In this document: positions 781-44,475 of the stretch, in pieces
Numbering within the stretch: the first letter of the stretch is position 1
Layout: each line of letters opens with the position of its first letter
Assembly: GCA_963731735.1 (NCBI GenBank)
Contig: CAVSWO010000002.1
Span: 128,529 to 192,528, forward strand
DNA: 64,000 nucleotides
Direction: 5' to 3'
Source of the DNA: Candidatus Kerfeldbacteria bacterium
Lineage (GTDB): Bacteria > Patescibacteriota > Patescibacteriia > SBBC01 > CAIJZX01
Made by a program: the position numbers and the translations under genes
The notes under the pieces: model-generated
Told to the model about the DNA's origin: nothing
Seen by the model: the letters and a program-made list of their open reading frames with translations, nothing else
Database searches by the model: none

Positions 781-2535
781 TTAGGCGCGGGTCGCGTCGA
801 GAACTTCTTCAACGCTGGTAAATCCACGCAAGGCTTTAATCATCCCGTCTTGTTTCATGGTGACCATCCCCTGGTTGGCGAAAGCGGCCGTAATTTTTTC
901 AATTAAGTCACCGCCGCCAACGATAATTTTCTTCATTTCTTCGTTGATTTCCAGGACTTCAGAAATTGCCACCCGGCCCTTATAACCGGTATTTTCGCAG
1001 CGGGCGCATCCTTTTCCCTGCCACATTTTTAGCGGCGGCGTCAGGTCTATTTCTTTAGGGAGCGTCTTTTTCGATAACGGTTCCAACTCAGCCAATACTT
1101 TTTCCTGAATTTCATCCGGCATGGGAGTTTGCTGCTTACAATGCTGGCAGACCCGTCGCACCAGCCGTTGCGCCATGACCACATTCAACGAGGAGGCGAT
1201 CAGAAATGGTTCAATTTGCATATCAATCAAGCGCGGCACGGCCCCAATTGAGTCGTTGGTGTGCAAGGTGGAGAGCACGACGTGCCCGGTTAGTGCGGCG
1301 TGGACGCCTAAGGCGGCCGTTTCATTGTCGCGGATTTCACCGACCATGATAATATCCGGGTCTTGTCGCAGAATGGACCGCAAGCCGGCCGCAAACGTTA
1401 ACCCGACCTCCGGATTGACCTGCGATTGGTTAATGCCGGTCATGTAATACTCGACCGGGTCTTCAAGGGTAATAATGTTCACGCCCTCTTCATTCAGAAT
1501 ATTAAGGAGCGCGTACAAGGTGGTCGATTTACCGGATCCGGTTGGACCGGTTATCAGGAACATGCCGTGTGAGCGGGTTATTGCTTCCAGCATGACTTCC
1601 TTGTTGCGGCCTTCAAAACCCAGACCCTCAACCTTGATCAGTTCGCTGTTCGTATCCAAAATACGCATCACAACTTTTTCGCTGTTGATCAGCGGCAAGG
1701 TTGAAACGCGATAGTCAATATTGCGGCCGTCAATCACCATCCGGAATCGACCGTCCTGCGGCACCCGCGTTTCGTCAATTTTCAGGTTGGACAAGACCTT
1801 AATCCGGGCAACTAACGATGAGTGGACGTGCTTCGGGAGGGTCAACGAGGTGTGCAAGATACCGTCGATTCGGTAACGAATCCGGGTTTCATCGGCTACC
1901 GGCTCGATGTGCACGTCGGAGGCTTTGCCTTCAACCGCGTGACGCATGACGACCGAGACAATTTTTGAGACCGGCGCGGTTTTGACAACCTCCTCCAGCC
2001 CTTTATCAGAAATATCAACCGCTCCGATTTCCTTATCGGCGTCTTTCTCGGCGCCTTTCAGCGCCTCTTCCACTTCAGCCGACAAACTTTCGTACTGTCG
2101 CAAGACGTATTTGAGCGAAGCGTCGGAAGTCAGGTAATATTTGATCTGAAAATTATTCTTGCGGGCAATATACTCAATCGCTTCCAGGGCTTGAAAATTC
2201 GTCGGATCGACCATCGCAATCGAGACTTGGTTGTCGGACCGATTGAAGGCCACCATTTTGTAATTGGCCGCTAATTCCTGCGGCATGATATTCAAAATTT
2301 CGGCCCGGACAATTTTGCCGAACAAATCGACCGACGGCATGTTGTAGAGCGATGCCTTGGCTTTGAGCAGGTCCTCATCTCGAACCGCGCCCGAGTGCTC
2401 GATCACATGATCAAGCGTTTCCCGTTGCTGTTGCGCTTGGGCTTGCAATTCGCCAAGCTTGGCCGGCGTGATGGCCTTGGCCTGGAGCAGGATATCAGCC
2501 AGCGAGGCGGTCGTGGATACTTGCGGACCGGGCAT
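781..2535 (-). CDS. pilB: Type IV pilus assembly ATPase, PilB/GspE family
   Basis: 584 aa; N-terminal T2SSE_N-like region, Walker A GPTGSGKST, Walker B/Asp box DPDIIMVGEIRD, His box, tetracysteine CQHC...CARC zinc motif. Confidence 0.85.
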   Translation of the reverse strand: MPGPQVSTTASLADILLQAKAITPAKLGELQAQAQQQRETLDHVIEHSGAVRDEDLLKAKASLYNMPSVDLFGKIVRAEILNIMPQELAANYKMVAFNRSDNQVSIAMVDPTNFQALEAIEYIARKNNFQIKYYLTSDASLKYVLRQYESLSAEVEEALKGAEKDADKEIGAVDISDKGLEEVVKTAPVSKIVSVVMRHAVEGKASDVHIEPVADETRIRYRIDGILHTSLTLPKHVHSSLVARIKVLSNLKIDETRVPQDGRFRMVIDGRNIDYRVSTLPLINSEKVVMRILDTNSELIKVEGLGFEGRNKEVMLEAITRSHGMFLITGPTGSGKSTTLYALLNILNEEGVNIITLEDPVEYYMTGINQSQVNPEVGLTFAAGLRSILRQDPDIIMVGEIRDNETAALGVHAALTGHVVLSTLHTNDSIGAVPRLIDMQIEPFLIASSLNVVMAQRLVRRVCQHCKQQTPMPDEIQEKVLAELEPLSKKTLPKEIDLTPPLKMWQGKGCARCENTGYKGRVAISEVLEINEEMKKIIVGGGDLIEKITAAFANQGMVTMKQDGMIKALRGFTSVEEVLDATRA

Positions 2536-2538
2536 AGG

Positions 2539-2814
2539 CTATTGAAATGGATTGGGATTGCCAGAATCTGCGTTGACGTTGACCGTCACGGTTTGATCGA
2601 ACGACTGGAGGTCCTGATAGCGCGCATCGTTTAAAATCGTTTCTCCGAAATTGGTAATAACGGTTCGATTACGATTTTGGTTGACCAGCATGTCGTTACT
2701 GGTCGGAGCTAGGAACTGCTGGACTAAAAACCATCCAATCCCACCCAACACCAATACGACCACGGCGATGATGATGGTGCGATTTGAACTGGTGCGACGT
2801 TTAACAAGGGCCAT
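2539..2814 (-). CDS. Small membrane protein in the pilus operon (single TM helix, Asn/Gln-rich C-terminus)
   Basis: 91 aa ORF with one hydrophobic helix (IIIAVVVLVLGGIGWFLV). Translationally coupled between pilO-like and pilB. Confidence 0.4.
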   Translation of the reverse strand: MALVKRRTSSNRTIIIAVVVLVLGGIGWFLVQQFLAPTSNDMLVNQNRNRTVITNFGETILNDARYQDLQSFDQTVTVNVNADSGNPNPFQ

Positions 2815-2816
2815 GG

Positions 2817-3479
2817 CTAGGAAGATGTTTTATCAGGAACGTAATACGTTCGAACTACGATGGTATAAGGTGAGGAGGTAGTTTCCGTGTCGCTGGTTTC
2901 GGCCGTGTGCGAGAAGCTGACCGATAATACGTCAAATAATCGCTGGCTGGATTCAACCAGCGTCATAAAGCGCTTGAAGGCTTCGTAACTCGTTCCGCCG
3001 GAAACGGTCAGATTAATATCTTCCGTTTTGACATCCAGCGCCGTGGCGGTACCGGCCGGCGCCGTATCCGGCGTCGTCGCGGTGGCCGATGATCCCGAGG
3101 TGCCAATCTGGCCGGATTCATTGACCGAGATAGAGGACAATTCCAAGTTGGCCGTTCGGGCAATATTTTCAAGCGTCAACAACAGGCCCGGGAAATCGGA
3201 TTCGGTCGGCAGGAAGGCGTCCACCTGGGCTAATTGATCCTGCGGTAAGGCGGCTTTAAATTTGGCCACGGATTTCTTGAGTGAGGCCAGATATTCCTGT
3301 TCACTCGACAATTCGGATTCGACGTTCGCTTTTTCCAGGATGCCGGATGTGCGCAGATTCGATATCTTCGTGTCGAGCACTAAGAAATAGCCGCCGACCA
3401 TGACCAGCACCACCAGCACCCAGACCGTCCAGCGGTAATAGTCAGTTAAGAGCGATTGGAGAAAACTTGGGAATTTCAT
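2817..3479 (-). CDS. PilO-like pilus assembly protein (N-terminal TM, coiled coil)
   Basis: 220 aa; TM near N-terminus, predicted coiled-coil region, position after the pilN-like gene; overlaps it by 4 nt. Confidence 0.45.
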   Translation of the reverse strand: MKFPSFLQSLLTDYYRWTVWVLVVLVMVGGYFLVLDTKISNLRTSGILEKANVESELSSEQEYLASLKKSVAKFKAALPQDQLAQVDAFLPTESDFPGLLLTLENIARTANLELSSISVNESGQIGTSGSSATATTPDTAPAGTATALDVKTEDINLTVSGGTSYEAFKRFMTLVESSQRLFDVLSVSFSHTAETSDTETTSSPYTIVVRTYYVPDKTSS

Positions 3480-4351
3480 GAGGTGGTGTCAGTGGTTGGT
3501 GCCTGATCCTGGAAAACCGACGGCAGAATTTGCAGATTGACGGAGAAGGTAACCTGATCGCCCAGTTCAGTCGTGGTTCGGGTGGCGCCGGTGATATCAA
3601 AGCTCGAAATGAAATCTCCGTTGGCGACCGCTTGTTCAAACACCAAATACTGCTGCGCGACGTGTTCGTAGGTGTCCGTCCGGGCGCCAAGCGTCAGGCT
3701 GCCATTGATATCCGCCGCGAACGATGTGCCGTAAAAGACTTCCGGCAGTGTATAGTGCTCAAGCTTGGCGAACATATTGGTCCAGTGGACATGGTCATCA
3801 ATCAGCCGCCGAATGGCGCTGATCTTTTGGGTGGTTTGCTGAATGGTTTTCTGCTCGCCTTTCAGATCGTCAATTTGCTGACGAACCTGCGCTAGCTCCG
3901 TTCGCTTGGTAGTAATTTGGTTGGCAATCGAGCGATCGGCCAGGCTCAAACCGAAATAGGCCAGCCCGACAACCGCCGCCGCGCCCACCATCCAGCCAAC
4001 CAATGACAGCAGCACCATCCGCGGTTTAAAGCTGGAAACCAAATCTTCCGACAGCAGGTTAACATCAAAATTGTCATCATCTTCCGGCAAGGGAATAACC
4101 GCCGGCCGGCTGGAGCGCTTTTCATTGATGATCCGCTGATCCGGTTTTGATTTGCCGAGTCCCATCCGCCCTTTATCGGCTTTGGCTTGCCCGAGCGTCG
4201 GGTTCGAATGCCCAAGCATCGATCGGAACATTTTGCCAAATCCCCCGCCGCCGGCCGTCGGGTCGGTCATTTCCGGCTGCCCCGGCTTCTTCGGCGGCTT
4301 GGGCGGCAAGTCCGGGGATTGCGTGTCGTGAATTAGGTTAACTTCCGGCAT
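3476..4351 (-). CDS. PilN-like pilus assembly protein (cytoplasmic N-tail, TM, coiled coil)
   Basis: 291 aa; Pro/Gly-rich N-terminal tail, single TM (VLLSLVGWMVGAAAVVGLAYFGL), coiled-coil segment, directly downstream of pilM. Confidence 0.45.
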   Translation of the reverse strand: MPEVNLIHDTQSPDLPPKPPKKPGQPEMTDPTAGGGGFGKMFRSMLGHSNPTLGQAKADKGRMGLGKSKPDQRIINEKRSSRPAVIPLPEDDDNFDVNLLSEDLVSSFKPRMVLLSLVGWMVGAAAVVGLAYFGLSLADRSIANQITTKRTELAQVRQQIDDLKGEQKTIQQTTQKISAIRRLIDDHVHWTNMFAKLEHYTLPEVFYGTSFAADINGSLTLGARTDTYEHVAQQYLVFEQAVANGDFISSFDITGATRTTTELGDQVTFSVNLQILPSVFQDQAPTTDTTS

Positions 4352-4360
4352 AGCAAATTT

Positions 4361-5425
4361 TTAGGCGACGATCTCCCGCATCCCCAAGCCAATCGAAACC
4401 GCGAAGCGCGGTCCAATTTCCTGGAGCACCGGCTGTAGATCAACCGGGTAGACGACGCGCGCCCACGGGTCACCGATAAACGTTTTGAGCGATAGGGTTT
4501 TTTCCAAGTATTCCGGCAGATTTAACAAAAACGATGAGCCACCGGCCAGGATAATCTTTTCAACCGGCGCCCGGCCCTGGTTACGATAGAGATTCAGCAC
4601 AAACCGAATTTCATTGATGATTGAACTTATCACAAATTCAATCGTTTTCGGAATTTGGGAAACCGATTGGCCGGTCGAAATGCCGAAGTCGCGTTTGAAC
4701 TGTTCGGCGCGTTCGAGATCGATGTTCATACTTTGGGCAATGGATTTTGAAATGGTGTTGCCGCCCACGTCGATGCTGCGGTTGATCAGCGGTATGCCGT
4801 CGACGAAAACCGCGATGTTGGTGGCCACGGCGCCGATATCGACGATCATGACCGGGGAGGAATCCGTGCCGATCAAGGATCGTTCCAGGGCCAAAGCCTC
4901 CGTCTCAAGATTGATCATCTGGAGTCCGGCGCCTTTGGCAATGTCTAAATAGCGTTTAACCAGGTTTTTCGGCGCGGCCGTGATCAGGACTTTCAGGTTC
5001 TTGGGCTGGTCGGTTTGGGCTTTCGGGTTTTTCGACGAGTTCTCTTTGATTAATTTCCAGTCTAACACCAATTCATCGATCGGCAGGGGCACGAATTTCT
5101 TGGCTTCCCAGCGGACGGCTGCATTCAATTCTTTGCGGGTCATCAGCGGTAAACTGATGATCGAACTGAAAACCGTGAAGCTTGGCAGGGCGGTAATCGC
5201 CTTATTTGAGGTAAATCCGGCGTGTTTGATTAGCGATTTTAGCGCGCTGATGACCGCTTCCTTGCCGGCCGTGGCGTCGCTTTTGACTATATCGAACTTC
5301 TCTTCGACGTAACCGTAGGTCATCAAACGCGGCCGACCATTATCGTCGCCCATTTGGACCACTTTGATACTTGAGGTCCCGATATCGATGCCAAGAAAAC
5401 TTTGTTTTGGGTTGAATGTTGCCAT
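4361..5425 (-). CDS. pilM: Type IV pilus assembly protein PilM (actin-like ATPase fold)
   Basis: 354 aa; N-terminal GIDIGTSSIKVV phosphate-1 motif and actin/FtsA-like architecture typical of PilM. Confidence 0.8.
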   Translation of the reverse strand: MATFNPKQSFLGIDIGTSSIKVVQMGDDNGRPRLMTYGYVEEKFDIVKSDATAGKEAVISALKSLIKHAGFTSNKAITALPSFTVFSSIISLPLMTRKELNAAVRWEAKKFVPLPIDELVLDWKLIKENSSKNPKAQTDQPKNLKVLITAAPKNLVKRYLDIAKGAGLQMINLETEALALERSLIGTDSSPVMIVDIGAVATNIAVFVDGIPLINRSIDVGGNTISKSIAQSMNIDLERAEQFKRDFGISTGQSVSQIPKTIEFVISSIINEIRFVLNLYRNQGRAPVEKIILAGGSSFLLNLPEYLEKTLSLKTFIGDPWARVVYPVDLQPVLQEIGPRFAVSIGLGMREIVA

Positions 5426-5614: not shown

Positions 5615-8600
5615 TTACGGCCCGGTGCTGACACTACTTGGTAGCACGCCGGCGAAGTCGCGAAAACCTTGCGGCGGATTGGATTGCAGCCGACCGTCGT
5701 TGATGATGACTTCTGACGGCAACGGCGTTTCAACCGTGCCGGCGAAGGTCCGGGCGAAATAGAATTTATGAGCCAGCATTATCCCCCGAACCGTCAACGG
5801 GAAATTGTTTGGTAAATTGCGGGTAACGGTACACTCCGTCGGCGGTGAATCACCATTGTCCGGTTGGCCGGTGCATATCGTTCCGGTCACATAATAATTG
5901 CCGGCCAGCTCGGTCACGCCGTTATCAATGATCAGATTGCCTTTGACAACAACCATCAAGGATGCTAATTGACGGAGAAGCGTTATTGACGGTGATAGAG
6001 AATACACAATATCTTTATCGATCCGCAGGTTACCATTTATAATCAGGGTTCCCGCCCCGCTGACAAAACTGGAACCACTCAAGCCACCGTTAAGAATAGT
6101 GAAACTCCTGTCGATTGTGTAGGTTTGCGTGCCACCCGCCTTACCCGCGACGAACACTTTATCCTGGAGTTTGGTTGTCGAATTACCTGCACCAATCATT
6201 GCATCCACAATGCTCCCACCGCTGTCGCCAAGCGATGTGACTGTTTGACCAAATTTATTAGTCTTATTTGTGGAGTCTGTCACCGTCTCTGCGCCCTGTA
6301 AATCAATCCGGCCGAGCGCGGTTTCAAACAAGTTTTTTTGTGACGCAAACGGAGTAAACGACGCGTTATTTTTTTCGGTGTCATAGGTCGCGACTTGATC
6401 AACGGTCAGCGAGGAGCAAAAATTATTTATCGAGCCGCCGGCCGAAACTACGTAACTGGCGTTACACAAATTGCCAGGCGCCGGCAACGTATCCGGGGCG
6501 CCAATGTTCCCCTGCGAGTAGACATCACCCAGTCGGGTCTGAATATAGCGGCGAGTCCCTTTAATCACATTCCCGAAATTCAACCAGCCGTAATCCGGGC
6601 TCCAGGCATAACCGGAGAATTGTCCGGTGATCGTATCCAGGTTTACCCCGTATTGATCGCATAAGGCGCCGGCGGCGCTACAGGTCGCACCTGTAAAACT
6701 GCACGTCCCACCGTTGCATTGAGTGTCATTCGTGCAAGCGTCGTAGGCATTGGTTGATTCACTCGAGCAGAAAGAGGCCGGCTTACAAGATTCATTCGCC
6801 GTGCACTCCGAATCCACCGTGCAAGTATTTTTCGTGATATCTCCACCACAATATTTCGTACAGCTTGCCGCCTCAGGTTGACAACTCCGCTGGTCCCCAT
6901 CTTGGCAAAAAGCACAAGACAGGTCACCACCGCTTAAGGCACAGGCCTGACAGGCAATCAATGAATACGTACCGCCGATGTTCACTGGCGTTGGTGTATT
7001 AACGGGTTTTCCACGTAAACTAATCCAACCGCGGGAACTATCGCCGTTCGGGTCACTCGAATTGGCCAAGGTCATGAAGCGGCCAACGCCCTGCAATTTT
7101 CCGGTTGTTGCGTCCAGGCAGGCGCCGCCGTTGTCGCAGTAATTGCGTTCCCCAGATCCAGCCTCAAGTTCGGCCGGCGGTGTTCCAATATCATTAGCAT
7201 CAAAGCTCAACCAACCGCCGCCGGCGCAGGCCAGCGAACTGGCATTGTTTTCGTCACACTGCAATCGCGTATTCGGCAGACTTTGCAATTTTGAGCTGCC
7301 GACGCTGGCCCCGCTCGGCAAATCAGCCGAGCCGAACGTACAATCCGCGTCATGTAAACAAATGAAACTTTGATCGTATTCGCAGTGCCCGTAACAATCA
7401 AAATCACGCAAGCAGGCACGTGTATCATCCTCCTGACAGGTGCGGGTGGCTGGATTGCATGATCCGGTCATGGTGTACGTAGTGGCTGGTTGCGGTAAAT
7501 CCGGATCTCGCGCATTGGCGCCCTGGCAGCTGCCGAGAGCGATCGTTTCGTTGTCCGAATTACTGTTTCCGGCCGCGTAATTTTTTCCGAACCAGGCGCG
7601 TCCGCTCAAACGATTATCCTCGAGCGTCAATCCGTAGGCGTCAATTTGCCGCTGGCAAAGGGATACGCTGTTCCCATCCCGTTGATTTAAACAGCTAGTC
7701 GAAATCCAGCCCAACCCGGCATTTTGCCCGCCGTTGGCCGGACTTGCATTGCCGGCCCAGACATAGCCCGAGACGTTGCCGGACACCCGTTGGAGCAACA
7801 AACTGCTCGGCCCGACCGCAAAGGCGTGCTGCTGTCCGATAGCGCTGACCGCATATAATGGATCACTGGTATTAGCGGCAGACTCAACCCGGCTGGAGAG
7901 GCTTAAAAAATTTCTGTCAGAATAAATAATACTAGTTCCATTATCTCCGACGGCCGTTATTTCTGCTCCCACCAGGGAATTCGCTGACGGGCTGTCCACC
8001 TGTTCAACACGGAGATTATCACACCAAACTTTCGCTCCATAGGTCGCTTCGCAGCTAACTTGGAGCTGCATGCCAAAATACCCAATCCGCGGGTTGGAAG
8101 TGGCGCCCTTAATCGGATTGGCGTATTGATTATTTTCCTGGGAAACAACCATTTCAAACGGAATATAGCCGTCGGTCGCGCCCTGGTTGATGGTCCGAAT
8201 TTGCGTCCGATTTTCGAACGCGCAGTCCGGAGCGGTGGCCTGCCCGACGTTACCTCCGACGCATCCAATCGCGATGCCGCCCTGGGGAATGGTTGCGGCC
8301 GGGTTCGGAGCAACGGTACCGGGAAATTCCACCTTGTATTCGCCGGAAATTTTATAGCGAATGCCCGGAATTGTTGAAAGGCGGATGGTGTTCACCGCTG
8401 CAACCGAATGTTTCGTGTTTCCATTTGTTCCATTCGTACAATCGGATATGCTTGAATAGGTGGGTCGTGGTTCAAGCATCAACGCGTAATTGCTTCCCCC
8501 TGACCCAACTTCGGTCGAGATCTGGATTTCTTTGGTACTAATACCGACTTTATTGCTCCCCCCATCGCAACCAGTGCTGCTGAAACCGCCGGCGCCCTCA

Positions 8601-9853
8601 TCAGTAAGGGTCCAAACACTTGGATTCACATATTCACCGGAAGGGTTTGACGATTCCCAAGATTCGAAGTTGCCATTGCGCAAGAGGTTGGATGATGAAC
8701 CCTGTTGAATTGGAATGCTTGAAACATCATGCAAGATGGTCTCGCTGGGAGCGATCTGCGTAAAACCAGCGGCAGATTGTTTCTCACTCAGCCGCCACAA
8801 ACCGTTGCTGGCCGCAACGTAGACCATATTGGCAAGCGGTCCGTTCGTCGAATCAGTAGGATAGTCAGTCGTTTGGACCGTCACCCCGAAGAAACATACT
8901 CCCGAAGCAGAACCGACTTCTGTAACTTGATTGCCGACGACTTTATACAAATGCCCGGATTGAGCACCCGCATTGGTACAGTTTCGATCAAGTTCACCCG
9001 TATTCGATGTCGTGGTGGTGATATAAGCGGTTCGATTTTCCCCAAAAGCGATATCGGTGATATGTTCGGTGCTCGGAATTGGCGAACAAAGTTTTTTCCA
9101 GGTATCCTTCGTATCCGTTATTGAATCATAATATTTGGTATGTTGGAGGAGTAATCCGTTCTTACCCCCTGCTAACATGGGCGTTCGGTAACCTTTAGCC
9201 GCGGCAATCGCGTACAATTCGTTGTCTACCGCGGGATTATTACCTCCCGAACAAGTGGTGTCTTCAAGATATGATGGCAGGGTGGCATTGAGGTCAGGAT
9301 TGGTGGCGGACGTATTTGCATAATCTAGAATAGTGGTCGTTGCTGAACCTGATCCGTCTACATAATTTGTCTGTTTTCCAGCAAACCAAATTTCGGAATT
9401 ACCGCTGCCGGTGTTATATTGCCCGGTGACGGCGTTTTGTTCACCAAGGGTACCGATAGCTGCGGTGACCTGGTTTCCTGAAGAATTAATACGAGTGAGT
9501 GACGTCATCGTTCGCTGCCGCCAACGCTGACCGTCAAACCGGTAGATGCTTCCATCAAAAACGTTTGCTCCGGCTTTGTCTTTATTCTGTCCCACCGCCC
9601 AGGCTTCAAAGAGCTGATTCGAAGTTACGCTAGCTTCTGGGTCGTACGGGTCATTGCGTCTGCTGACTGACCCATCCACCCGGTAATACGAATAAACTCC
9701 CCGAAAATCGGTCGGGGAAAAGTTAGTGGTGGTAATCAGCGGCACAGCTAATTCGGCCATGGTCCGTTGTACGCCCAAGAACACTCCGGTCATGGCAATC
9801 AAAGCGATAATTAGAGAGGCCGGGAATCGGTATCGATGAATCAAACGACGCAT
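5615..9853 (-). CDS. Giant (1412 aa) secreted or cell-surface Cys-rich protein in the pilus operon; candidate pilus-associated adhesin (PilY1-analogous by position only)
   Basis: Intact 4.2-kb ORF; N-terminal basic region plus hydrophobic helix (RYRFPASLIIALIAMTGVFLGV); several Cys-dense segments. Starts 3 nt after the stop of paralog A and is followed by pilM. Confidence 0.7.
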   Translation of the reverse strand: MRRLIHRYRFPASLIIALIAMTGVFLGVQRTMAELAVPLITTTNFSPTDFRGVYSYYRVDGSVSRRNDPYDPEASVTSNQLFEAWAVGQNKDKAGANVFDGSIYRFDGQRWRQRTMTSLTRINSSGNQVTAAIGTLGEQNAVTGQYNTGSGNSEIWFAGKQTNYVDGSGSATTTILDYANTSATNPDLNATLPSYLEDTTCSGGNNPAVDNELYAIAAAKGYRTPMLAGGKNGLLLQHTKYYDSITDTKDTWKKLCSPIPSTEHITDIAFGENRTAYITTTTSNTGELDRNCTNAGAQSGHLYKVVGNQVTEVGSASGVCFFGVTVQTTDYPTDSTNGPLANMVYVAASNGLWRLSEKQSAAGFTQIAPSETILHDVSSIPIQQGSSSNLLRNGNFESWESSNPSGEYVNPSVWTLTDEGAGGFSSTGCDGGSNKVGISTKEIQISTEVGSGGSNYALMLEPRPTYSSISDCTNGTNGNTKHSVAAVNTIRLSTIPGIRYKISGEYKVEFPGTVAPNPAATIPQGGIAIGCVGGNVGQATAPDCAFENRTQIRTINQGATDGYIPFEMVVSQENNQYANPIKGATSNPRIGYFGMQLQVSCEATYGAKVWCDNLRVEQVDSPSANSLVGAEITAVGDNGTSIIYSDRNFLSLSSRVESAANTSDPLYAVSAIGQQHAFAVGPSSLLLQRVSGNVSGYVWAGNASPANGGQNAGLGWISTSCLNQRDGNSVSLCQRQIDAYGLTLEDNRLSGRAWFGKNYAAGNSNSDNETIALGSCQGANARDPDLPQPATTYTMTGSCNPATRTCQEDDTRACLRDFDCYGHCEYDQSFICLHDADCTFGSADLPSGASVGSSKLQSLPNTRLQCDENNASSLACAGGGWLSFDANDIGTPPAELEAGSGERNYCDNGGACLDATTGKLQGVGRFMTLANSSDPNGDSSRGWISLRGKPVNTPTPVNIGGTYSLIACQACALSGGDLSCAFCQDGDQRSCQPEAASCTKYCGGDITKNTCTVDSECTANESCKPASFCSSESTNAYDACTNDTQCNGGTCSFTGATCSAAGALCDQYGVNLDTITGQFSGYAWSPDYGWLNFGNVIKGTRRYIQTRLGDVYSQGNIGAPDTLPAPGNLCNASYVVSAGGSINNFCSSLTVDQVATYDTEKNNASFTPFASQKNLFETALGRIDLQGAETVTDSTNKTNKFGQTVTSLGDSGGSIVDAMIGAGNSTTKLQDKVFVAGKAGGTQTYTIDRSFTILNGGLSGSSFVSGAGTLIINGNLRIDKDIVYSLSPSITLLRQLASLMVVVKGNLIIDNGVTELAGNYYVTGTICTGQPDNGDSPPTECTVTRNLPNNFPLTVRGIMLAHKFYFARTFAGTVETPLPSEVIINDGRLQSNPPQGFRDFAGVLPSSVSTGP

Positions 9854-9856
9854 AAT

Positions 9857-10672
9857 CTAGGGATATAAACCAATACACCCGGTGGCGCTGCTGCCATTGG
9901 CGCAAAAACAACGGGGGGTCGGATCAACCGCGGAACAATCGTTTAGGCCACCCCCGTTCACGTCATCACCCACCCGAATTGGGGTGCCATCCAGTATTCC
10001 GGCATCCAGGGTTGAACCGATGCCATCATTGCCGCTGTACCACACCGGTAATTGGGTGCTGTCGTAAGCGGATTTCACGGTTAACTGGCCATTGACCTGT
10101 AAATCCCCGCCAATTTCAATCGCATCGTTTGAACTCAATGCGTAGCCGGAAGGGTTGATGTTTGAGATATAGAGCGCGGCCGCCGGATTATCAGCCACCA
10201 AACTGACGGTTGGGTTGGTGCTTGAACCGCCGGTCAGCTGGACTCCCCAACTTTTATCAACCGGAAGTAAACGCAGGCCCAGCAGTTCCCAGGTTCCACC
10301 GCCGCCATCAGCCGGCCAAGTGTTCCGACACGCCCCGCCTAAGCAGACACTGCCGGGTACATCCACATTCACCGCAGCGCCCGAACGGCTAAACTTGACC
10401 GAGAGGTTGGCGGCCAAAGACGAGGGGCGCAGATAAATATCCGACGATGATGAGGCGATGTCCTGCCCGGTGGCGCCCAGTTCAAAATAGCTGTCACCCG
10501 TGCCGCCGGGAACAATCGCCACCACCCCTTGATAGGCTGCCGCTCGGGTGGTCGCACCGGGTGACACCGGCGCGGCCATCGCCGAGGTTGCCAACAATCC
10601 GCCCGCCATCAGCAAGGCGATACCGGCGGTCAACCAGTTCATCCATCGAGAATTGTTGCGGACGGTTTGCAT
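9857..10672 (-). CDS. Secreted Cys-loop-motif protein, paralog A of a six-gene tandem family
   Basis: ORF 9857..10795; most likely start at Met42 (10672), 2 nt after paralog B stop. Sec-type signal MNWLTAGIALLMAGGLLATSAMA. Motif VCLGGACRNTWP. Confidence 0.6.
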   Translation of the reverse strand: MQTVRNNSRWMNWLTAGIALLMAGGLLATSAMAAPVSPGATTRAAAYQGVVAIVPGGTGDSYFELGATGQDIASSSSDIYLRPSSLAANLSVKFSRSGAAVNVDVPGSVCLGGACRNTWPADGGGGTWELLGLRLLPVDKSWGVQLTGGSSTNPTVSLVADNPAAALYISNINPSGYALSSNDAIEIGGDLQVNGQLTVKSAYDSTQLPVWYSGNDGIGSTLDAGILDGTPIRVGDDVNGGGLNDCSAVDPTPRCFCANGSSATGCIGLYP

Positions 10673-10674
10673 AG

Positions 10675-11544
10675 TTAAATATGATTCCACATTGGCGCGC
10701 ATTTCTTTCCGATATCGGTGGCTACACACAAGCAGGCCAACGTTTTGTCTCCACCCGGATTTGGTTGGCCAAACGGACCGAGAATGCTGGCGCATGATGC
10801 AGCGGGTTCCAGCGTGACATTCTCAAAGTCGCCAAATGGTGACACGTAGCGGTCGGCATCAAGTCCTGAACCTTCACCTTGGTGCGGCGCAATACCCGCC
10901 GCCGGATATCCCGGATGCCAAACCTCGCTTCCATTCACGTAAATTTTTCTTCCCACTACCGTCTCCCCATCCGAAAATACGTTGCCGTCGGCTTGCATGG
11001 CTTGGGATAATCCGCTAGTGTCCCGATTAATAACCTGTAATCCGTAATACCCCGAACCATGAACATCCAGAGCGGGTCCGTTCTGGACACGCTGGCTTGA
11101 GGTTCCAACGCCGAGCGCGTAGGTAGCCGTATTGGGTTCCAGGTAGCCACTGTTGACCTGCCAATAATTGCCGCCGCCGGCCGTCGGCCAGACATCCCGG
11201 CAATCCTGGCTGCCGCTCCCGTTTAAACAGAGTTTCCCGGTTATCAAGACGTCTTCGGCGCTCCCATTTTTGAAAAAACGGATGCCTCGAGATTCCGGAA
11301 GCTGGGGACGAAAATAGAGGTCGCCGGTTGAGCCAATGTCCCGCCCGTTGTTACCGATCTCCATGGCTTGGCTGCCGTCCAATATCGTCAGGACTCCGCC
11401 ATAGACGCCAAGTTTTGTAAACGGCGCGCTGTTCGGCCCGTTCGTAATTGGCCCGGCCTGGGCTGGCAACATAGTAACCAGCGCGATGACGGCGATCAGG
11501 CCGAGAGCTAACCAGGTGTGAGATGTGAATCGGAGACGCAACAT
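10675..11544 (-). CDS. Secreted Cys-loop-motif protein, paralog B
   Basis: 289 aa; signal MLRLRFTSHTWLALGLIAVIALVTMLPAQA; mature N-terminus GPITNGPNSAPFTKLGVYGGV parallels paralog C; motif LCLNGSGSQDCRDVWP. Confidence 0.65.
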   Translation of the reverse strand: MLRLRFTSHTWLALGLIAVIALVTMLPAQAGPITNGPNSAPFTKLGVYGGVLTILDGSQAMEIGNNGRDIGSTGDLYFRPQLPESRGIRFFKNGSAEDVLITGKLCLNGSGSQDCRDVWPTAGGGNYWQVNSGYLEPNTATYALGVGTSSQRVQNGPALDVHGSGYYGLQVINRDTSGLSQAMQADGNVFSDGETVVGRKIYVNGSEVWHPGYPAAGIAPHQGEGSGLDADRYVSPFGDFENVTLEPAASCASILGPFGQPNPGGDKTLACLCVATDIGKKCAPMWNHI

Positions 11545-11545
11545 A

Positions 11546-13045
11546 CTAGTTAAAATTTTCCGTACAAATATCAGCCCCTTGTCCGGCTACCGAATTATAA
11601 AATGTTTTATCATTCGTTAATCGACAATCACACGAGCACGTAAAATTATTCGTATTCCCATCATACGAGCAAGCGGATTGCCCGCAGCTGCCGGTATTGT
11701 AATGAATAGAGCTGCCGGTAAACGAACAGCTGGGGTCTTGGGTCCCCTGACATTTAAATCTCGCGGAGCATTCGGTATTGCAGCGACTGTTATCGCAACT
11801 TATCGGTAACCCCTGATACAAAACCATATACTGTAATAAATCACCGTACAGGCAAAAATCCGTCCCCGGCGGGCCGCAATCATCATTATAGGTACAGCTG
11901 GTGCTGTTATTATTTGCACAATGACCTTGGCCAACATCAACACCAGGTTCGGGATCTTTGGCACATATTTGGGCCTGCGCCGAACAGAGTTGGGAACAAG
12001 TCCCGCCGGGACAGTCCCCTGCGCTGGAACAAGTTCCGCCGGGACAGTCCCCTGCGCTGGAACAAGTTCCGCCGGCATTGCTGCCCCCCACACAAAGTTG
12101 GGAACAAGTTCCGCCGGCATTGCTGCCCCCCACACAAAGTTGATTGTCGGGGGTGTGCAGACAAAGGTATTCAAGATTTGATCCGGTGTTAGTTTCAATA
12201 TCTTTCCAGAATAAATCGTGATAATTTCCGGCCGCGTGGCTGGCTTTGGTGAAGGGTAAATTCGTCGTTCCATCAAACGTGTCGGCATCGACGCCTCCAT
12301 AATTATCATTTTCTGCATTCCAGGGGACCACCGCATAGGTATAGCCGTAGGAATACAAGGTTGGATAGCGAACCTGGTAATTCCCGTTCACTAGGGTGCT
12401 GCCGCCGACGTAATTGCCGCTGCCGGGATCATACCCGGTGGTAATGCGCTTGGTTACTTGGACGGCCGAGCCGGCATAATTGGCGTAGATTTCTCCGGCT
12501 TGGCCGCTGGAGGACGGGATCGGGTTGGTAAATGTACCAATCCGGATGCCGTTATTCCCGTCGGTCGGCTGCAAGTTCGACGGAGAGCCGGCAACTTGCC
12601 AATTCGGGTCGCTAGCACCGCCAGCTGACCAGGCGCTCCGGCAATTTGATAATGTTCCTAAACAAATTTGGCCGCTCGGGATACTGAAATTCGCTTTGCC
12701 GGACCCGCTGTCTTTGTAGATGTAGGCAATGTTATTCGGAAAGGTGTCCGAGGGACTCGTATACGTTGGCTGCATTGCTCCCGGGCGCAGGAAAATATCT
12801 CCGGTTGAAGCAATCTCTCGTCCGGCGTTTCCGAACTCCATCACGCTGTCCGTCGCACCGCCGGGAATGATCGTGATTACACCTTGGTAGACGCCGATCT
12901 TAGTGAAGGGCTCACCATACTGATTGGTTAACGGTCCGGCCTGGGCGGTTCGGGTAATCAATCCTGCCACGATGACAACCAGTCCAGCCACTGTCACAAT
13001 GCTTGGCCAACTCCGGTATGAAAATATGGTGCGTTTCCGGGGCAT
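11546..13045 (-). CDS. Secreted Cys-loop-motif protein, paralog C, containing in-frame tandem repeats
   Basis: ORF 11546..13111; probable start at internal Met (13045), giving signal MPRKRTIFSYRSWPSIVTVAGLVVIVAGLITRTAQA. Mature GPLTNQYGEPFTKIGVYQGV; motif ICLGTLSNCRSAWS; C-terminal Cys-rich region. Confidence 0.65.
   Translation of the reverse strand: MPRKRTIFSYRSWPSIVTVAGLVVIVAGLITRTAQAGPLTNQYGEPFTKIGVYQGVITIIPGGATDSVMEFGNAGREIASTGDIFLRPGAMQPTYTSPSDTFPNNIAYIYKDSGSGKANFSIPSGQICLGTLSNCRSAWSAGGASDPNWQVAGSPSNLQPTDGNNGIRIGTFTNPIPSSSGQAGEIYANYAGSAVQVTKRITTGYDPGSGNYVGGSTLVNGNYQVRYPTLYSYGYTYAVVPWNAENDNYGGVDADTFDGTTNLPFTKASHAAGNYHDLFWKDIETNTGSNLEYLCLHTPDNQLCVGGSNAGGTCSQLCVGGSNAGGTCSSAGDCPGGTCSSAGDCPGGTCSQLCSAQAQICAKDPEPGVDVGQGHCANNNSTSCTYNDDCGPPGTDFCLYGDLLQYMVLYQGLPISCDNSRCNTECSARFKCQGTQDPSCSFTGSSIHYNTGSCGQSACSYDGNTNNFTCSCDCRLTNDKTFYNSVAGQGADICTENFN
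11993..12142. repeat. In-frame tandem direct repeats inside paralog C: 2 x 33 nt (11993-12025, 12026-12058; 1 mismatch) followed by 2 x 42 nt (12059-12100, 12101-12142; identical)
   Basis: Read directly in the sequence. Units begin ggaacaagt(c/t)ccgccgg...; they encode SAGDCPGGTCS x2 and QLCVGGSNAGGTCS x2 on the minus strand. Confidence 0.9.
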
Positions 13046-13046
13046 G

Positions 13047-13934
13047 CTATTGGCAATCAAAACTAAATTGATCTTCCTGAATTTCCGGCCAACAGAGTCC
13101 GTCGTTATCATAAATTGGGCTAATGGAAACTTTCATAGGTCCGCCCGCTACGACTGATTCAAATTGCCAGGCCGCATTGGCTACGCCGTTCCCCGTCCCG
13201 GTCCAGGCGAGCCCGCCTTCAACCGGTAATCCTCCGACTGCAATCGGTTGGATCAACGGCGGATTGGCAGTTTGGACTTTGACGTACGGGTCAACCGTAA
13301 TTGATCCAAGATCGCTCCAAGCGGAAATACATTGCCCGCTCGGACTCTCGCCCGCGCCTTTACCGCGTTTTGTAATACCGTTCAAGCAGAGTAAACCAGG
13401 ATTGGAATTCTTATCTTGTTCAACGCTCAAGATGCCAGAAAAACGCGCCGCGAAAGCCCCGCGGTCGAGGTCATCGGTCGCGAAGATGCCCACTTGTGTA
13501 CCGAGTACTCCGATAGCCGGATCGGCAATCACCGTTGCAGCCGGCGTACCGCCTGAACCTTGGAGTGCCGCGTACCCGGTTTGTCGATAGGGTGTATAGG
13601 AATCTATGAGTGATGGATCGTCAACGAGTTGATCAGGATTAACCTTGACCAAGGCACCGCCGACACTGCCACCTAAGTCGCTCCAGGCGGTGATACAGTT
13701 GCCGTTTGGATCCGAACCGTTCAGACACAGCGCGGCTTGATTGACCGTGTCACCGATTACCAAAGAACCAAGCTTAACTTGTGTGTTGCTTGAGGTATCG
13801 AGAAAGGTTGCGCTCCGTCCGCCCGGCGGTGTTGAACTGGGTTCCACGTAGATCGCAATCGCCGGCGCGGCAATCGCCAAACCCAAAATGATCAAGATCG
13901 CCAGGCTGGTGGATGGTACACGCAAGGTCAACAT
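13047..13934 (-). CDS. Secreted Cys-loop-motif protein, paralog D (two motif copies)
   Basis: 295 aa; signal MLTLRVPSTSLAILIILGLAIAAPAIA; mature IYVEPSSTPPGG; motifs ALCLNGSDPNGNCITAWSDLG and LLCLNGITKRGKGAGESPSGQCISAWSDLG. Confidence 0.65.
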   Translation of the reverse strand: MLTLRVPSTSLAILIILGLAIAAPAIAIYVEPSSTPPGGRSATFLDTSSNTQVKLGSLVIGDTVNQAALCLNGSDPNGNCITAWSDLGGSVGGALVKVNPDQLVDDPSLIDSYTPYRQTGYAALQGSGGTPAATVIADPAIGVLGTQVGIFATDDLDRGAFAARFSGILSVEQDKNSNPGLLCLNGITKRGKGAGESPSGQCISAWSDLGSITVDPYVKVQTANPPLIQPIAVGGLPVEGGLAWTGTGNGVANAAWQFESVVAGGPMKVSISPIYDNDGLCWPEIQEDQFSFDCQ

Positions 13935-13935
13935 A

Positions 13936-15594
13936 TTATGGAGTTAAGGTTCCGCCCCCTCCGCCGCCTGAGGAGAACGTGGCGGTCACTGATTTATCAC
14001 CGTTCATGAGTATACTACAGCTCTGACCCGAGCAGGCGCCGCTCCAGCCGGTAAATGTATAGCTGGGGAGAACAATTGTATCTAACGTTTCCGTAATCCC
14101 ATACTCATACACGACTTGCGTGCTGGTACATGACGTGCTGCAGACAAAGCTGTTATTGTTGCCCAGGACACCGCCGGCACTGGTCGGGCCGGACTTGGTT
14201 ACATTCAGGTGCACCACCTTGATGGAATCGGTGGCGGCGTTCGAGTAGCGGGGGAAATGGTTACCTTGGTAGGCGCGATAATAATAGGTTGTACCGGATA
14301 CCACGTTGCTGTCGCCGGAGATACTGACCGATGATCCGCCGTTAACGCTGCCGGCGTAGATGATTGTGCTGCCGCCGACCGTCATGCCGGTGTAATACAG
14401 CCGACCATTCTGCGGCTCGAATGGATCGCTGGCATCGGTACTGCGGGTTACCAGGAGTTGAACGGTCCCGCTCGGGCTCTGCGAACCGGTCGTGATGGAG
14501 AATTTTACTTCATTCTCTAAGGTATAGAGTGAAAGCGTCGGCTGACCGACGGTCGCACAATCAATCGGGCAGTTCCCCTCCGAGGCGCAAAAGCCGTCGC
14601 CGCAGGTACACGGCGCCGAGCCGCAGGATGGTGTGGTGGAAAACCCATACGGATCACCGGCCAGAATCGAACCAACCGATCCGACGCCGTTGCTTGAATC
14701 GGTAACCGTTGAGGCAGTCAAGGATACACCGCCGTATTGTTTCGAGGCGGTGCCATAACTAAACGGCGCGCCGGCCGTAGATTTGCGTAAACGCACATAG
14801 ATAGTGCCTGAGCCGGTTAAATCCTCCCAGGCTGAAATACAACTTGATCCCCCGGTTCCGTTTAGGCACAACTGCCCCGAAGAATATCCGTTATACGGAT
14901 AGGTGTTGCCGGAAATCAGGAGGTTCCCGGCAAATCGGCCGGCCACATTATTGGCATTGCCGCCGTTGGTCGCGTAGATTCCATACAGATTAGACTGCTC
15001 GCCGGGTGACCCGGAATTCGGGGCGGTACAGTCAGAACTTCCGGTACAGGATGATTGTTGATCCCCCGAACAAAAACATGATTCTTGGGTTGACTGGCTT
15101 CCGCAAGGAACCTCATTAGCGCTCGGGTCCAGTTCAACGCACTGGTGCGGCGCCGCAATCACGGCTGAATAATTTTGCTGATCACCGGTTGAGGTAACGC
15201 GCGCGAAGCCGGCCTGGGTATCATAATTGCCATAGCTATTCGGGTTACTGCTGGGTGCGGCTTTATTCAGACGCACGAATTGTCCGCCCAAGGCCGAATC
15301 AATTTGATCCCAGCTACTGATACAGTTTGTCGAATCTCCGGTCCCAACGCCGGCTGTCGGATTTAAACATAAAACGTTACTGCCGCTGCCAATGGTCAGG
15401 TCGCCGGCTTTTTTTTGCGCGCTATCCGAAGCGTTCAAAGGTGGCGCGATTTGACCGTCGGGCGGGTTGTCGGGACGTGGAATATACGAATAGGCGGGTT
15501 GGGTGACCCAAAAGATGCCGCCAAACAACGCGACCAAGAGCACGAAAATACTGGGTAAACGTAGTCGGGTCATGGGCTGCAATCGCTCGGACAC
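13936..15594 (-). CDS. Secreted Cys-loop-motif protein, paralog E (552 aa, two motif copies)
   Basis: Signal MTRLRLPSIFVLLVALFGGIFWV; mature AYSYIPRPDNPPDG; motifs VLCLNPTAGVGTGDSTNCISSWDQ and QLCLNGTGGSSCISAWEDL. Confidence 0.65.
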   Translation of the reverse strand: MSERLQPMTRLRLPSIFVLLVALFGGIFWVTQPAYSYIPRPDNPPDGQIAPPLNASDSAQKKAGDLTIGSGSNVLCLNPTAGVGTGDSTNCISSWDQIDSALGGQFVRLNKAAPSSNPNSYGNYDTQAGFARVTSTGDQQNYSAVIAAPHQCVELDPSANEVPCGSQSTQESCFCSGDQQSSCTGSSDCTAPNSGSPGEQSNLYGIYATNGGNANNVAGRFAGNLLISGNTYPYNGYSSGQLCLNGTGGSSCISAWEDLTGSGTIYVRLRKSTAGAPFSYGTASKQYGGVSLTASTVTDSSNGVGSVGSILAGDPYGFSTTPSCGSAPCTCGDGFCASEGNCPIDCATVGQPTLSLYTLENEVKFSITTGSQSPSGTVQLLVTRSTDASDPFEPQNGRLYYTGMTVGGSTIIYAGSVNGGSSVSISGDSNVVSGTTYYYRAYQGNHFPRYSNAATDSIKVVHLNVTKSGPTSAGGVLGNNNSFVCSTSCTSTQVVYEYGITETLDTIVLPSYTFTGWSGACSGQSCSILMNGDKSVTATFSSGGGGGGTLTP

Positions 15595-16490
15595 TGCGTC
15601 TGTTCGTTATTTTCCGGTGAACAAATTCCGTCTCCGCATGTGTATGAAGCTGGGGTGCTGGCCGCCGGGTGGCCGGCTACCAGGGAACCCACAATAATTG
15701 GGCCGTTGATCCCGATGTTACCATCCTGCGGGGTATAGACCTGCCCTGACTGCAGCTCTAAGACATCATTCGGAACGCCGCCCACGACCTCGGCCCAACT
15801 TTGTTTACAGTCATCATTCAAACAAATAGACGTTTGCCCGCTTTCCGGCAGGATGACAGTTTTACCGGCCAATTGGCCAGCATAATATGAAGAGGTGGAG
15901 CTAGCGGCTTGGATGCCGGTTGAATTATCGATGCTGTTGGCCTGGGCCAGCAGTGAAATAAACTGGAATTTAGGCGAGTTACCGTCCGCCTGGAAGGTAA
16001 TAAAGCCGGAGTCGGCGGTGGCGCCGGCTTGTTGACTCGAATTATAAAGGTGTAAATAGTTACCGCTGGCTTGCGACGCGATATCGCTCCAGGAAGAAAT
16101 GCAATTGGTTGGATCGGTCGTCCAGAGATTCGCATCGGCATTCAAACACAGCCGCGCACAGTTGCCGTTTTCACTCGTCGTGCAATGAGCTAGCTGGCCG
16201 CCCCTTTCACCGAGAATAAGCGAACCGGCCTTCGTTTGGGCGGTAGTTGATCCATTTAAAAATTCTAGGGTGCTGCCACCCGTCGGAACGCCGTCTGGGG
16301 GTGGTCCATTTGGTTCAACGTAAGCTTGCGCACCGGCCACCAGCGGGAAGATAAGCGCCCCGGCCAACAATACGGCGGCCAGGGAAAAACGGGAACGGGA
16401 TTGGATTCGATGTTTCTTTTTAGGCGTTTTCACGACAAGCAATCTACAAAACGACCGCTTGAGTATACCAAATTTCGCTTGCCAATGCAA
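15570..16490 (-). CDS. Secreted Cys-loop-motif protein, paralog F (first gene of the operon; exact start uncertain)
   Basis: 306 aa ORF; signal-like SRSRFSLAAVLLAGALIFPLVAGAQA; mature AYVEPNGPPPDG; motifs ARLCLNADANLWTTDPTNCISSWSDI and SICLNDDCKQSW. Confidence 0.6.
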   Translation of the reverse strand: MHWQAKFGILKRSFCRLLVVKTPKKKHRIQSRSRFSLAAVLLAGALIFPLVAGAQAYVEPNGPPPDGVPTGGSTLEFLNGSTTAQTKAGSLILGERGGQLAHCTTSENGNCARLCLNADANLWTTDPTNCISSWSDIASQASGNYLHLYNSSQQAGATADSGFITFQADGNSPKFQFISLLAQANSIDNSTGIQAASSTSSYYAGQLAGKTVILPESGQTSICLNDDCKQSWAEVVGGVPNDVLELQSGQVYTPQDGNIGINGPIIVGSLVAGHPAASTPASYTCGDGICSPENNEQTQCPSDCSP

Positions 16491-38230: not shown

Positions 38231-39239
38231 TTATTTAGTAGAGTGATTTTGTTGATGAATGGGAAGTGTGATCGTGACCGTGGAACCCTTTCCATCTCCG
38301 TCACTAATGATGTCAATCGCACCGTGGTGCTCGTCAATCACGTTCTTGGCAATAAAGAGTCCGAGACCAGAACCGTTGGTGTGCTGGTAAGTGGATTTTT
38401 CGCCTCGGGAAGACTTCTGGAACAACTTCGAACGGTCAGACTTTGGAATGCCAATACCGGTGTCCTTAACGGTGAGGACGACTGCCTCACCCTTAACCCC
38501 CAGACTGATTGTTGTGCCACCGGTATTTGTATATTTCTCGGCGTTATCGATAATGTTCATTAAGACCTCGTGGAGCATCTTTGGTTCGGCCTCTATCTTT
38601 GGTAGCGGTGGCTTCGGGTGATTAAACTTTAAGTAGAGCTCCTTATGGTCATAGTTCGGTTTGAGGTCACCACAAACACTATCGATCATTTCCTCAAGTT
38701 GTACTTGTTGGAAGTCAAAATGAAGACTCCCGCCCTCAAGCTCCATCGCTTTCAGCAAATCGTTGACGATACTAGAAGCCTATTTGCTGAGTCCAACATG
38801 TGGTGCTGTTCGGTTTTCTTTTCGTCCTTCGATAAGCTATCAAAGTCTCCGTCTGCTTGCATAGCCAATAGTCCACGAACAGCTGTCAATGGCGTGCGGA
38901 GCTGGTGGGAAGCAATAGTAAGGAACTCCGACTTATTTTAACGAGTTCTTGCAAATGTTCATTTTTATCGGAAATGTCCCTTGTTTGCTCATCAACCTTT
39001 GAGCGGAGATTCTTGTTGAAGTCTTGAACTTGCTGATAGAGCAAGCCGTTTTGAATAGCAATTGATGCTTGGTCAGCGATGGAATCGAGGAGTTGTAAAT
39101 CACCGGACGTGTAGGCTTCCTTGGTTACCTTTGATCCTAACACAACAATACCAATAAGATGCTTACCAAACGTTAACGGCAAACAGAGCGCCGCTTCAAT
39201 CCTTTTCATATTTACAACGAGCTTCCCCGACCTCGCCAT
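38231..39239 (-). pseudogene. 3' part of the sensor histidine kinase (end of GAF domain, HisKA, HATPase_c), broken by frameshifts
   Basis: 38886..39239 carries the GAF C-terminal part; HisKA (SHQLRTPL-like) reads in another frame around 38760-38940; 38231..38758 encodes HATPase_c (GTGIGIPKSD..., GSGLGLFIAKNV). All are colinear with the upstream 787-aa ORF. Confidence 0.55.
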
Positions 39240-43075: not shown

Positions 43076-43603
43076 AAAAAGGGAAAAGATTACCCCGATA
43101 TTAAAGCCCTACGGCAAGCAAATGATAACACAAAATGAGGCTTTCGCGTAATATTACGTCATCAAACCTTGCAAGGGATCTTAAGGGTTTCGCGGTCTTT
43201 TAGAAACCAAACTTATTTGAAGTTACCTACAGTTTACCAACTAGACGCCGTCCCCCATCGCGGTACTGTCTGGACAAGTCACTGAGCAAGAAAAACGAAG
43301 TTGCTGGAAGGCGCAAAATACGCTAGAATAACGCCAGTTTGAGGCCTCGGTAGCAGTTGTTTCCTCAAACGTCCTTTCTCCAACTTCTTTGCCTAACCCA
43401 TACCCTTGTATGGCACGGCATCTAACTCCCATCCCTGGTATTGAGCTCTCCGCTCAGTGACTCAGGGATGGGTCATATCCTGAAAGGGGTATGGGTGGCC
43501 GCAAGGCTGCTAGCTGACGGAGAGCTCTGTGTTATGCAGAGATTCTCGCAAGCTACAAAATCCCATCCCACGACATGCTTTTATCTACCAATATCCTAAG
43601 CAT

Positions 43604-44123: not shown

Positions 44124-44399
44124 ATGTTCAAACGCGTCCCTGTTCAGAAACTCACTGGTCAAGAAACTTTCCACCAGACGGGAGAGAAGAAGTTCAACGT
44201 GTTGGAGTTCTGGCAGTATGGTTTCTCGAACCTGAACTCAAATGTTTTGCGCGGAGCATTGGCCGAGTTCATTGTTGAGAACGCCCTCAAAGACGTAAAG
44301 GACATCAACATCAGAAACCCGTGGGGCGACTCCGATAAAAGATTGAGTTGGCGGAGAGGGAGAGATTCGAACTCTCGATACGGGTTTAACCCCGTATAA
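44124..44399 (+). other. Short ORF that runs into the tRNA-Ser(GCT) gene; likely a gene remnant at the island/tRNA junction
   Basis: 91-aa ORF whose last about 17 codons overlap the tRNA (44349-44442). The first 70 aa look protein-like (FNVLEFWQYGFSNLNSNVLRGALAEFIVENALKD) but no domain is recognised. Confidence 0.3.
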
Positions 44400-44442
44400 C
44401 AGGTTAGCAACCTGCCGCTTTCAACCGCTCAGCCACCTCTCC
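44349..44442 (-). tRNA. tRNA-Ser (anticodon GCT), type II, CCA encoded
   Basis: Minus strand GGAGAGGTGGCTGAGCGGTTGAAAGCGGCAGGTTGCTAACCTG...GAGTTCGAATCTCTCCCTCTCCGCCA; anticodon arm CAGGT-TGCTAAC-ACCTG. Confidence 0.85.
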
Positions 44443-44475
44443 CCGTTTCTGTTGACGATATGTAAAACTGACTTT

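Follow-up and report, generated by a model that had tools for sequence, protein, structure and literature searches.

The streptococcal alpha C and M proteins, the Xr region of staphylococcal protein A and MSP1a of Anaplasma all carry in-frame repeats within surface proteins. In-frame intragenic minisatellites are also found in other microbial surface proteins, such as the yeast FLO1/ALS adhesins (PMC3899988). Minisatellite arrays consist of many units, for which strain-to-strain differences in copy number have been documented, and they usually occupy a stalk or linker. Phase-variable contingency loci are instead built from short simple-sequence repeats, such as the CTCTT repeats of the Neisseria opacity genes (PMC3899988); with units of 1-8 nt, gain or loss shifts the frame, or changes the promoter spacing, and switches the gene on or off. 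The minor pilins and tip adhesins of Patescibacteria include PilX2 of Nanosynbacter lyticus, and pilins are reported to be far less conserved than the pilus machinery (PMC12206443); in cultivated relatives of the present organism pili mediate attachment to the host (PMC9894109, PMC12206443).

The array considered here lies on the minus strand of a 64-kb window (the whole stretch of DNA that was analysed), within a gene for a putatively secreted Cys-rich protein, paralog C. It runs from 12142 to 11993 in the order A-A-B-B', with a unit A of 42 nt and a unit B of 33 nt according to the codon layout, and comprises the following features:

11546..13045, minus strand: coding sequence of paralog C, putatively a secreted Cys-rich protein; likely start ATG at 13045, 499 aa
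12101..12142, minus strand: unit A copy 1, 42 nt, QLCVGGSNAGGTCS, carrying C1 and C2 of a conserved six-Cys module
12059..12100, minus strand: unit A copy 2, 42 nt, QLCVGGSNAGGTCS, with 0/42 nt differences from copy 1
12026..12058, minus strand: unit B copy 1, 33 nt, SAGDCPGGTCS, carrying C3 and C4 of the module
11993..12025, minus strand: unit B copy 2, 33 nt, SAGDCPGGTCS, with 1/33 nt differences, a synonymous GGG for GGA (Gly)
11951..11992, minus strand: unduplicated remainder of the module, QLCSAQAQICAKDP, carrying C5 and C6
12117-12101, 12075-12059, 12042-12026 and 12009-11993, minus strand: 17-nt direct repeats CCGGCGGAACTTGTTCC, spanning 11993..12117 at spacings of 42, 33 and 33 nt

Thus 14 codons (unit A) and the adjoining 11 codons (unit B) are each duplicated once, and both unit lengths are multiples of 3, in frame with the open reading frame 11546..13111(-). 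Tandem Repeats Finder reported 11993-12075 with a period of 33 (2.5 copies, 98% matches, score 159) and 12059-12142 with a period of 42 (2.0 copies, 100% matches, score 168), and a second repeat search returned identical 33-nt and 42-nt units. The preliminary description had reported in-frame repeats of 2x33 nt and 2x42 nt that duplicate these peptides, and the repeat searches together with the codon layout bear this out. All other repeats in the window score 49 or less, so that the array represents the sole strong tandem repeats there. The shared 17-nt tail CCGGCGGAACTTGTTCC (the GGTCS codons) closes all four units, with 1 mismatch in one copy; this 17-mer occurs 4 times in the window against 0.03 expected by chance, in every case within the array. 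The module remainder at 11951..11992 opens with CAACTCTGT, which is similar to the unit A start CAACTTTGT. No further copies of the full units A and B were found elsewhere in the 64-kb window, and silent donor cassettes for the units were rejected because none is present there. P0001, the database copy of this protein, comes from an 822,872-bp contig and agrees with the window protein in its repeat numbers. Two plus-strand open reading frames (11914-12192 and 11921-12181) and one in an alternative minus frame (11800-12336) cross the array and were dismissed as spurious in view of the clear homologs of the 521-aa frame.

As in minisatellites, the units are arranged head-to-tail with high identity, and their lengths are multiples of three within the coding region of a predicted exported protein, in which slippage or exchange would be frame-safe. 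Unlike the long minisatellite arrays, each unit is present here only twice, and within a conserved disulfide module. Moreover, a variable-number tandem repeat would be expected to have three or more units and to recur in orthologs or paralogs, and no such recurrence was found among 153 other family proteins and 20 homologous loci (322 kb). Repeat-mediated slippage in the gene of a putative exported protein is also conceivable in the manner of contingency loci, but the 33- and 42-nt units never shift the frame. The six possible exchanges between the 17-nt tails involve 33, 42, 66, 75 or 108 nt, all multiples of 3, and a length change would therefore stay in frame. A frameshift-type phase-variable locus is excluded by these lengths, while the earlier proposal that copy number can change without breaking the frame holds as a mechanistic possibility. 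A diversity-generating retroelement would be expected to show a pair of non-adjacent repeats with differences at many adenine positions and a reverse transcriptase nearby. Such a target was likewise excluded, since the copies here adjoin each other with only 0 and 1 differences, and no reverse transcriptase domain was detected among 35 window open reading frames scanned with Pfam.

The longest open reading frame of paralog C starts at 13111 and encodes 521 aa, and residues are numbered on this version; the database copy P0001 starts at GTG 12997. The ATG at 13045, located 2 nt past the stop of the upstream gene, is the likely start, because of this position and because it gives a signal peptide. 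Read from the sequence, the 499-aa product begins MPRKRTIF...VAGLITRTAQA/GPL (the slash marking the end of the signal, MPRKRTIFSYRSWPSIVTVAGLVVIVAGLITRTAQA/GPL), with the RKR, hydrophobic and AQA/GP elements of an ordinary Sec-type signal peptide, and the signals of relatives also end in AQA/GP. The mature chain contains 28 Cys, and the Cys count was even in 20/20 relatives checked (range 18-54), which is strong, if indirect, evidence for fully disulfide-bonded exported members of the family. Paralog C is therefore very probably an exported, disulfide-rich protein. Of the Cys-rich surface protein previously proposed, export and disulfide richness are thus very probable (signal peptide, 28 Cys, even counts), while anchoring at the surface is hypothetical.

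No known family accounts for this protein. Pfam-A returned 0 families at E<=1 for paralog C or its relatives, NCBIfam returned none for paralog C apart from a single chance match at 0.038, and a profile search of PDB sequences with the paralog C family returned nothing (best E = 0.99). Similarly, a Foldseek comparison of two AlphaFold2 models with the PDB gave no match (best E = 0.55 and 2.5). In its short Gly- and Cys-rich modules, regular Cys spacing and variable module number per protein, the family resembles the Cys-rich repeat families of Pfam and NCBIfam, but unlike these curated families it has no Pfam-A, NCBIfam or PDB match. An exhaustive profile search of 1.84 billion proteins yielded 175 representative members at E<=1e-3, and the genomes that carry them are mostly metagenome-assembled genomes (MAGs) of Candidatus Kerfeldbacteria or other Patescibacteria. 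A literature search returned nothing relevant on the family or on Cys-rich pilus-linked proteins in Patescibacteria or Kerfeldbacteria.

In relatives, the conserved module reads [LIV]C-x-GG-x-N-x-G-xx-C-x(4-13)-C-x-GG-x-C-xx-[LM]C-x(5-6)-C and opens the C-terminal disulfide-rich domain of the putatively secreted protein. A pattern search found it exactly once, at the same position, in 25 other entries (24 distinct sequences), and in alignments the window protein carries insertions of 14 aa and 11 aa with respect to every homolog. No tandem peptide repeats of at least 7 residues were found in 153 other family proteins, setting aside P0044, whose imperfect 7-residue repeat was discounted as chance, and no DNA repeat in 20 homologous loci (321,653 nt) scored above 73 in Tandem Repeats Finder. 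Recurrent fresh duplications in relatives were accordingly rejected, with none in 20 loci or 154 proteins. When variants were scored against a profile of 11 relatives from which the window protein was left out, a collapsed A-B variant reached a full score of 140.2 bits with a best single domain of 140.1, compared with 127.7 and 87.2 for the actual A-A-B-B. Judged from these comparisons, the single-copy module is the ancestral and normal state and the array is derived and lineage-specific, having come from A-B, because relatives have the module once and neither they nor the homologous loci hold a comparable repeat. In addition, as gauged by the 0/42 and 1/33 nt differences between copies, both duplications are very young.

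Family members have 4 to 13 residues between C2 and C3. In AlphaFold2 models built from 30- and 12-sequence alignments, the repeats had a pLDDT of 46-65 in both models, against 72-95 for the flanking strands, and the C-terminal domain was otherwise predicted with fair to high confidence. The low pLDDT over the repeats is consistent with a tolerated loop-out, in models that give no disulfide map. A portable four-Cys module (C-x-GG-x-N-x-G-xx-C-x4-9-C-x-GG-x-C) was also observed 1-7 times per protein, at varied positions, in 33 family members; it lies within the conserved N-terminal domain as well in P0002, P0003, P0009, P0017 and P0018, and P0134 (1978 aa) has seven copies. The identity of these modules is 0.447 within one protein and 0.427 between proteins, and an intragenic origin of the extra modules of relatives is unsupported by this comparison. 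The present array is the only fresh example for the idea that the family may grow by module duplication.

In a protein homology search of 5.8 billion protein clusters, the best match beyond the protein's own copy had 33% identity, and a comparison of the paralog C protein with genome contigs and metagenome contigs found no close relative. As well, a search of metagenomes for the flanking peptide QLCSAQAQICAKDP, written as a degenerate DNA pattern, gave 0 matches. An apparent length variant within one cluster, P0004 (627 aa) against P0007 (638 aa), turned out to be a mere start-codon difference. The closest genome found, a Kerfeldbacteria groundwater MAG (L009) with a PilB 84% identical to that of the window, has no ortholog with a six-Cys module: its one gene of the A/B/C group has a different C-terminal region that lacks the module, and it thus offers no ortholog for comparison.

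Paralog C is the fourth of six co-directional paralogs that precede genes of the type IV pilus machinery on the same strand:

9857..16490, minus strand: six co-directional paralogs, F to A, with Cys and a predicted signal peptide
15570-16490, minus strand: paralog F
13936-15594, minus strand: paralog E, 552 aa
13047-13934, minus strand: paralog D
10675-11544, minus strand: paralog B
9857-10795, minus strand: paralog A
5615..9853, minus strand: giant, putatively secreted protein, 1412 aa, with its own Cys-rich stretch; flanked by the paralogs and pilM in related genomes as well
781..5425, minus strand: type IV pilus machinery genes, downstream of the paralogs
4361-5425, minus strand: pilM (Pfam PilM_2, 4e-44)
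3476-4351, minus strand: pilN-like gene
2817-3479, minus strand: pilO (Pfam PilO, 9e-5)
781-2535, minus strand: pilB (Pfam T2SSE, 4e-130)

The gene order M48 peptidase, LemA, small open reading frame, secreted paralogs, giant protein and PilM-N-O(-B) is common to L001, L003 and L009, and the giant protein has 1400-2000 aa across Kerfeldbacteria-like genomes. Identity to L009 is 84% for PilB, 81% for PilM, 79% for LemA and 76% for ClpB, but only 33-41% for the six paralogs and the giant protein; the secreted cluster evolves fast relative to its neighbours. The single A/B/C-group gene of L009 (9992-11485, 497 aa) shares the N-terminal domain, which is followed by a repetitive stretch rich in Gly and Ala and then by a short Cys-rich terminus of another kind. 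Even at a PilB identity of 84%, genomes thus differ in how many paralogs they have and in C-terminal architecture. In Pfam and NCBIfam searches the six paralogs and the giant protein were without a family save for the C-terminus of paralog E, a divergent InlB B-repeat or Listeria-Bacteroides repeat (Flg_new_2, 3.7e-5; TIGR02543, 0.0017), which is the sole recognisable domain among the paralogs. The longest open reading frames of paralogs A (9857-10795) and B (10675-11544) overlap by 121 nt, and translation of paralog A probably begins at an ATG further downstream, around MQTVRNNSRWMNWL... As a side observation, six MAG records titled 'uncultured Gammaproteobacteria bacterium' (L004, L010, L011, L017, L019 and L020) carry this locus in a form typical of Patescibacteria; their PilM, LemA and ClpB share 58-78% identity with those of the window, and these titles are probably mislabels.

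A class III (prepilin) signal consists of a short basic leader ending in Gly, followed by a hydrophobic helix with Glu at +5. Paralog C resembles minor pilins and tip adhesins (PilX2; PilY1 of Pseudomonas) in having pilM/N/O/B as neighbours, in its predicted export and in being far less conserved than the machinery, but unlike pilins it has neither a class III signal nor an N-terminal pilin helix and carries an AXA-type signal peptide instead. A type IV pilin or minor pilin identity was thus rejected on the signal peptide, in spite of the linkage to pilus genes, and neither beta-propeller nor pilin-family homology was detected in paralog C with Pfam and NCBIfam.

Other features were also observed in the window. 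A full-length Rfam LOOT RNA is present at 43390-43511 (+), scoring 76.5 bits where the gathering score is 46.4; two tRNA genes lie close by, at 44352-44552. The segment 46653-55931 (-) is occupied by a type IV secretion-like cluster, which encodes two proteins with T4SS_pilin domains, one of which (1006 aa) also has beta-helix and Big_7 domains, as well as a protein with PD40 repeats and a P-loop ATPase resembling TraG/VirB4. Moreover, 39196-41559 (-) encodes a 787-aa protein in which a ThiF (E1-like) domain is fused to HisKA_7TM, a 7TM region typical of histidine kinases, which is an unusual fusion.

With respect to origin, the array probably reflects two very recent, lineage-specific, in-frame tandem duplications within one six-Cys module, as an ordinary product of replication error and not as a dedicated variation device. 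The ancestor would have been A-B, that is QLCVGGSNAGGTCS-SAGDCPGGTCS-QLCS..., with both halves closed by the shared 17 nt at a distance of 33 nt. Written as a-T-b-T, where T is the 17-mer, this ancestor may have undergone slipped-strand mispairing or unequal exchange between the two Ts, which would give the 33-nt duplication; a role of the 17-nt direct repeat here is inferred from the layout of the array. The duplication of 42 nt (exactly 2.0 copies) would need a separate second event of another kind, because it has no flanking microhomology. In addition, a tandem duplication of 75 nt would give A-B-A-B and not A-A-B-B, so that at least two events are needed and a single-event origin was rejected; an alternative to two events would be that a complete copy of the module was inserted at the A/B junction, which would be unusual. 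DNA secondary structure was also rejected as the cause of slippage, since small palindromes are present but the fold energy (z = -0.88) is not unusual.

The net gain would be 25 residues and 4 Cys, each unit bringing two Cys, so that the count stays even. The product can be viewed as A-[A'-B]-B', in which a complete module A'-B would be nested within the C2-C3 loop of the original, and the variable length of this loop in the family would explain the tolerance of the insertion. At present, the four 17-nt repeats would be a likely substrate for slippage or exchange. Against an ordinary origin, two events within a 75-nt ancestral segment, with none elsewhere in the 64 kb or in the 322 kb of related loci, exceed the expectation under a uniform background rate, and this clustering hints at a local hot spot or selection. 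The 17-nt identity of both halves may also go back to an earlier conversion, that is, to repeated activity at the site. The fast evolution of the cluster (33-41% against 76-84% identity to L009) was counted in favour of young duplications.

The same anatomy could be taken for a true variable-number locus, at which frequent slippage or recombination gives an exposed loop that varies in length or antigenicity. The pure units directly adjoin one another in frame, four 17-nt direct repeats are at hand, and the site has seen two separate recent events, with the identity of the 17-nt halves suggesting a still earlier exchange; furthermore, the protein is predicted to be exported, the evolution of its cluster far outpaces that of the neighbouring genes, paralog content differs between genomes, and variation is known to arise from minisatellites in genes for the cell surface (PMC3899988). 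However, unit number is reported to be the main determinant of instability (PMC3899988), and there are just two copies per unit here. The repeats also lie within a conserved disulfide module rather than a stalk of low complexity, 24 distinct relatives have this module as a single copy with no comparable repeat in the family or at homologous loci, and the assembled allele is the sole one known from the protein, genome-contig and metagenome-contig searches. On balance, a variable-number locus is unlikely, and the suggestion of a 'classic' route to length or antigenic variation was not upheld, given two copies of each unit, a single-copy module in 24 relatives and no comparable repeat in 322 kb. 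In a wider version, the array would be the sign of a loop whose length varies within the population and which belongs to the contact domain of a fast-evolving, fully disulfide-bonded family of secreted proteins new to science. In Kerfeldbacteria-like Patescibacteria this family, with several paralogs and the 1400-2000-aa protein immediately upstream of pilM-N-O-B, would be genetically coupled to the type IV pilus machinery and would diversify by four-Cys module duplication as a host-recognition set. This version appears doubtful.

Selection might otherwise have fixed the expansion, the nested four-Cys module being kept for a longer or added binding loop as one step of module accretion. This would fit the four-Cys modules of 33 family members, which number 1 to 7 in each protein and vary in position, the preserved Cys parity and the fact that A'-B is a complete canonical module. 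Modules within a protein are, however, about as similar as those between proteins (0.447 vs 0.427 identity), which gives no hint that further intragenic duplications took place; each half was duplicated on its own and not as part of a whole module, the near-zero divergence leaves no time for visible selection, and the structural model of the repeat region has low confidence. A selected expansion is accordingly improbable. The copies could also have been created or miscounted by the assembler, for instance by laying strain variants in series, as the contig is a single one from a metagenome-type assembly of an uncultured organism, tandem repeats are known to cause assembly errors (PMC6868369) and a single SNP separates the B copies, as it might two alleles from different strains. 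Nevertheless, the sub-arrays of 84 and 66 nt are short enough for ordinary reads to span, frame and Cys parity survive intact, which could not be counted on after random mis-joins, and the A copies are identical and thus not two alleles. An assembly artefact is therefore quite unlikely, and two young in-frame duplications remain the probable explanation.

Taken as such a routine duplication, the repeat itself is of value as a marker of a conserved, unannotated, pilus-linked operon in a Kerfeldbacteria-like, episymbiont-type (CPR) bacterium, and the surrounding fast-evolving, disulfide-rich cluster is a more interesting object than the array. Should the copy number prove uniform in reads, the array would be merely a lineage-specific insertion. 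If it proved heterogeneous, the array would provide an inexpensive marker, short enough for PCR, of surface variation among strains of an uncultured lineage, as well as a live example of a family gaining cysteine modules. If the reading of a pilus-coupled, length-variable loop were true, the cluster would be a new host-recognition gene set, with one of its modules caught at birth.
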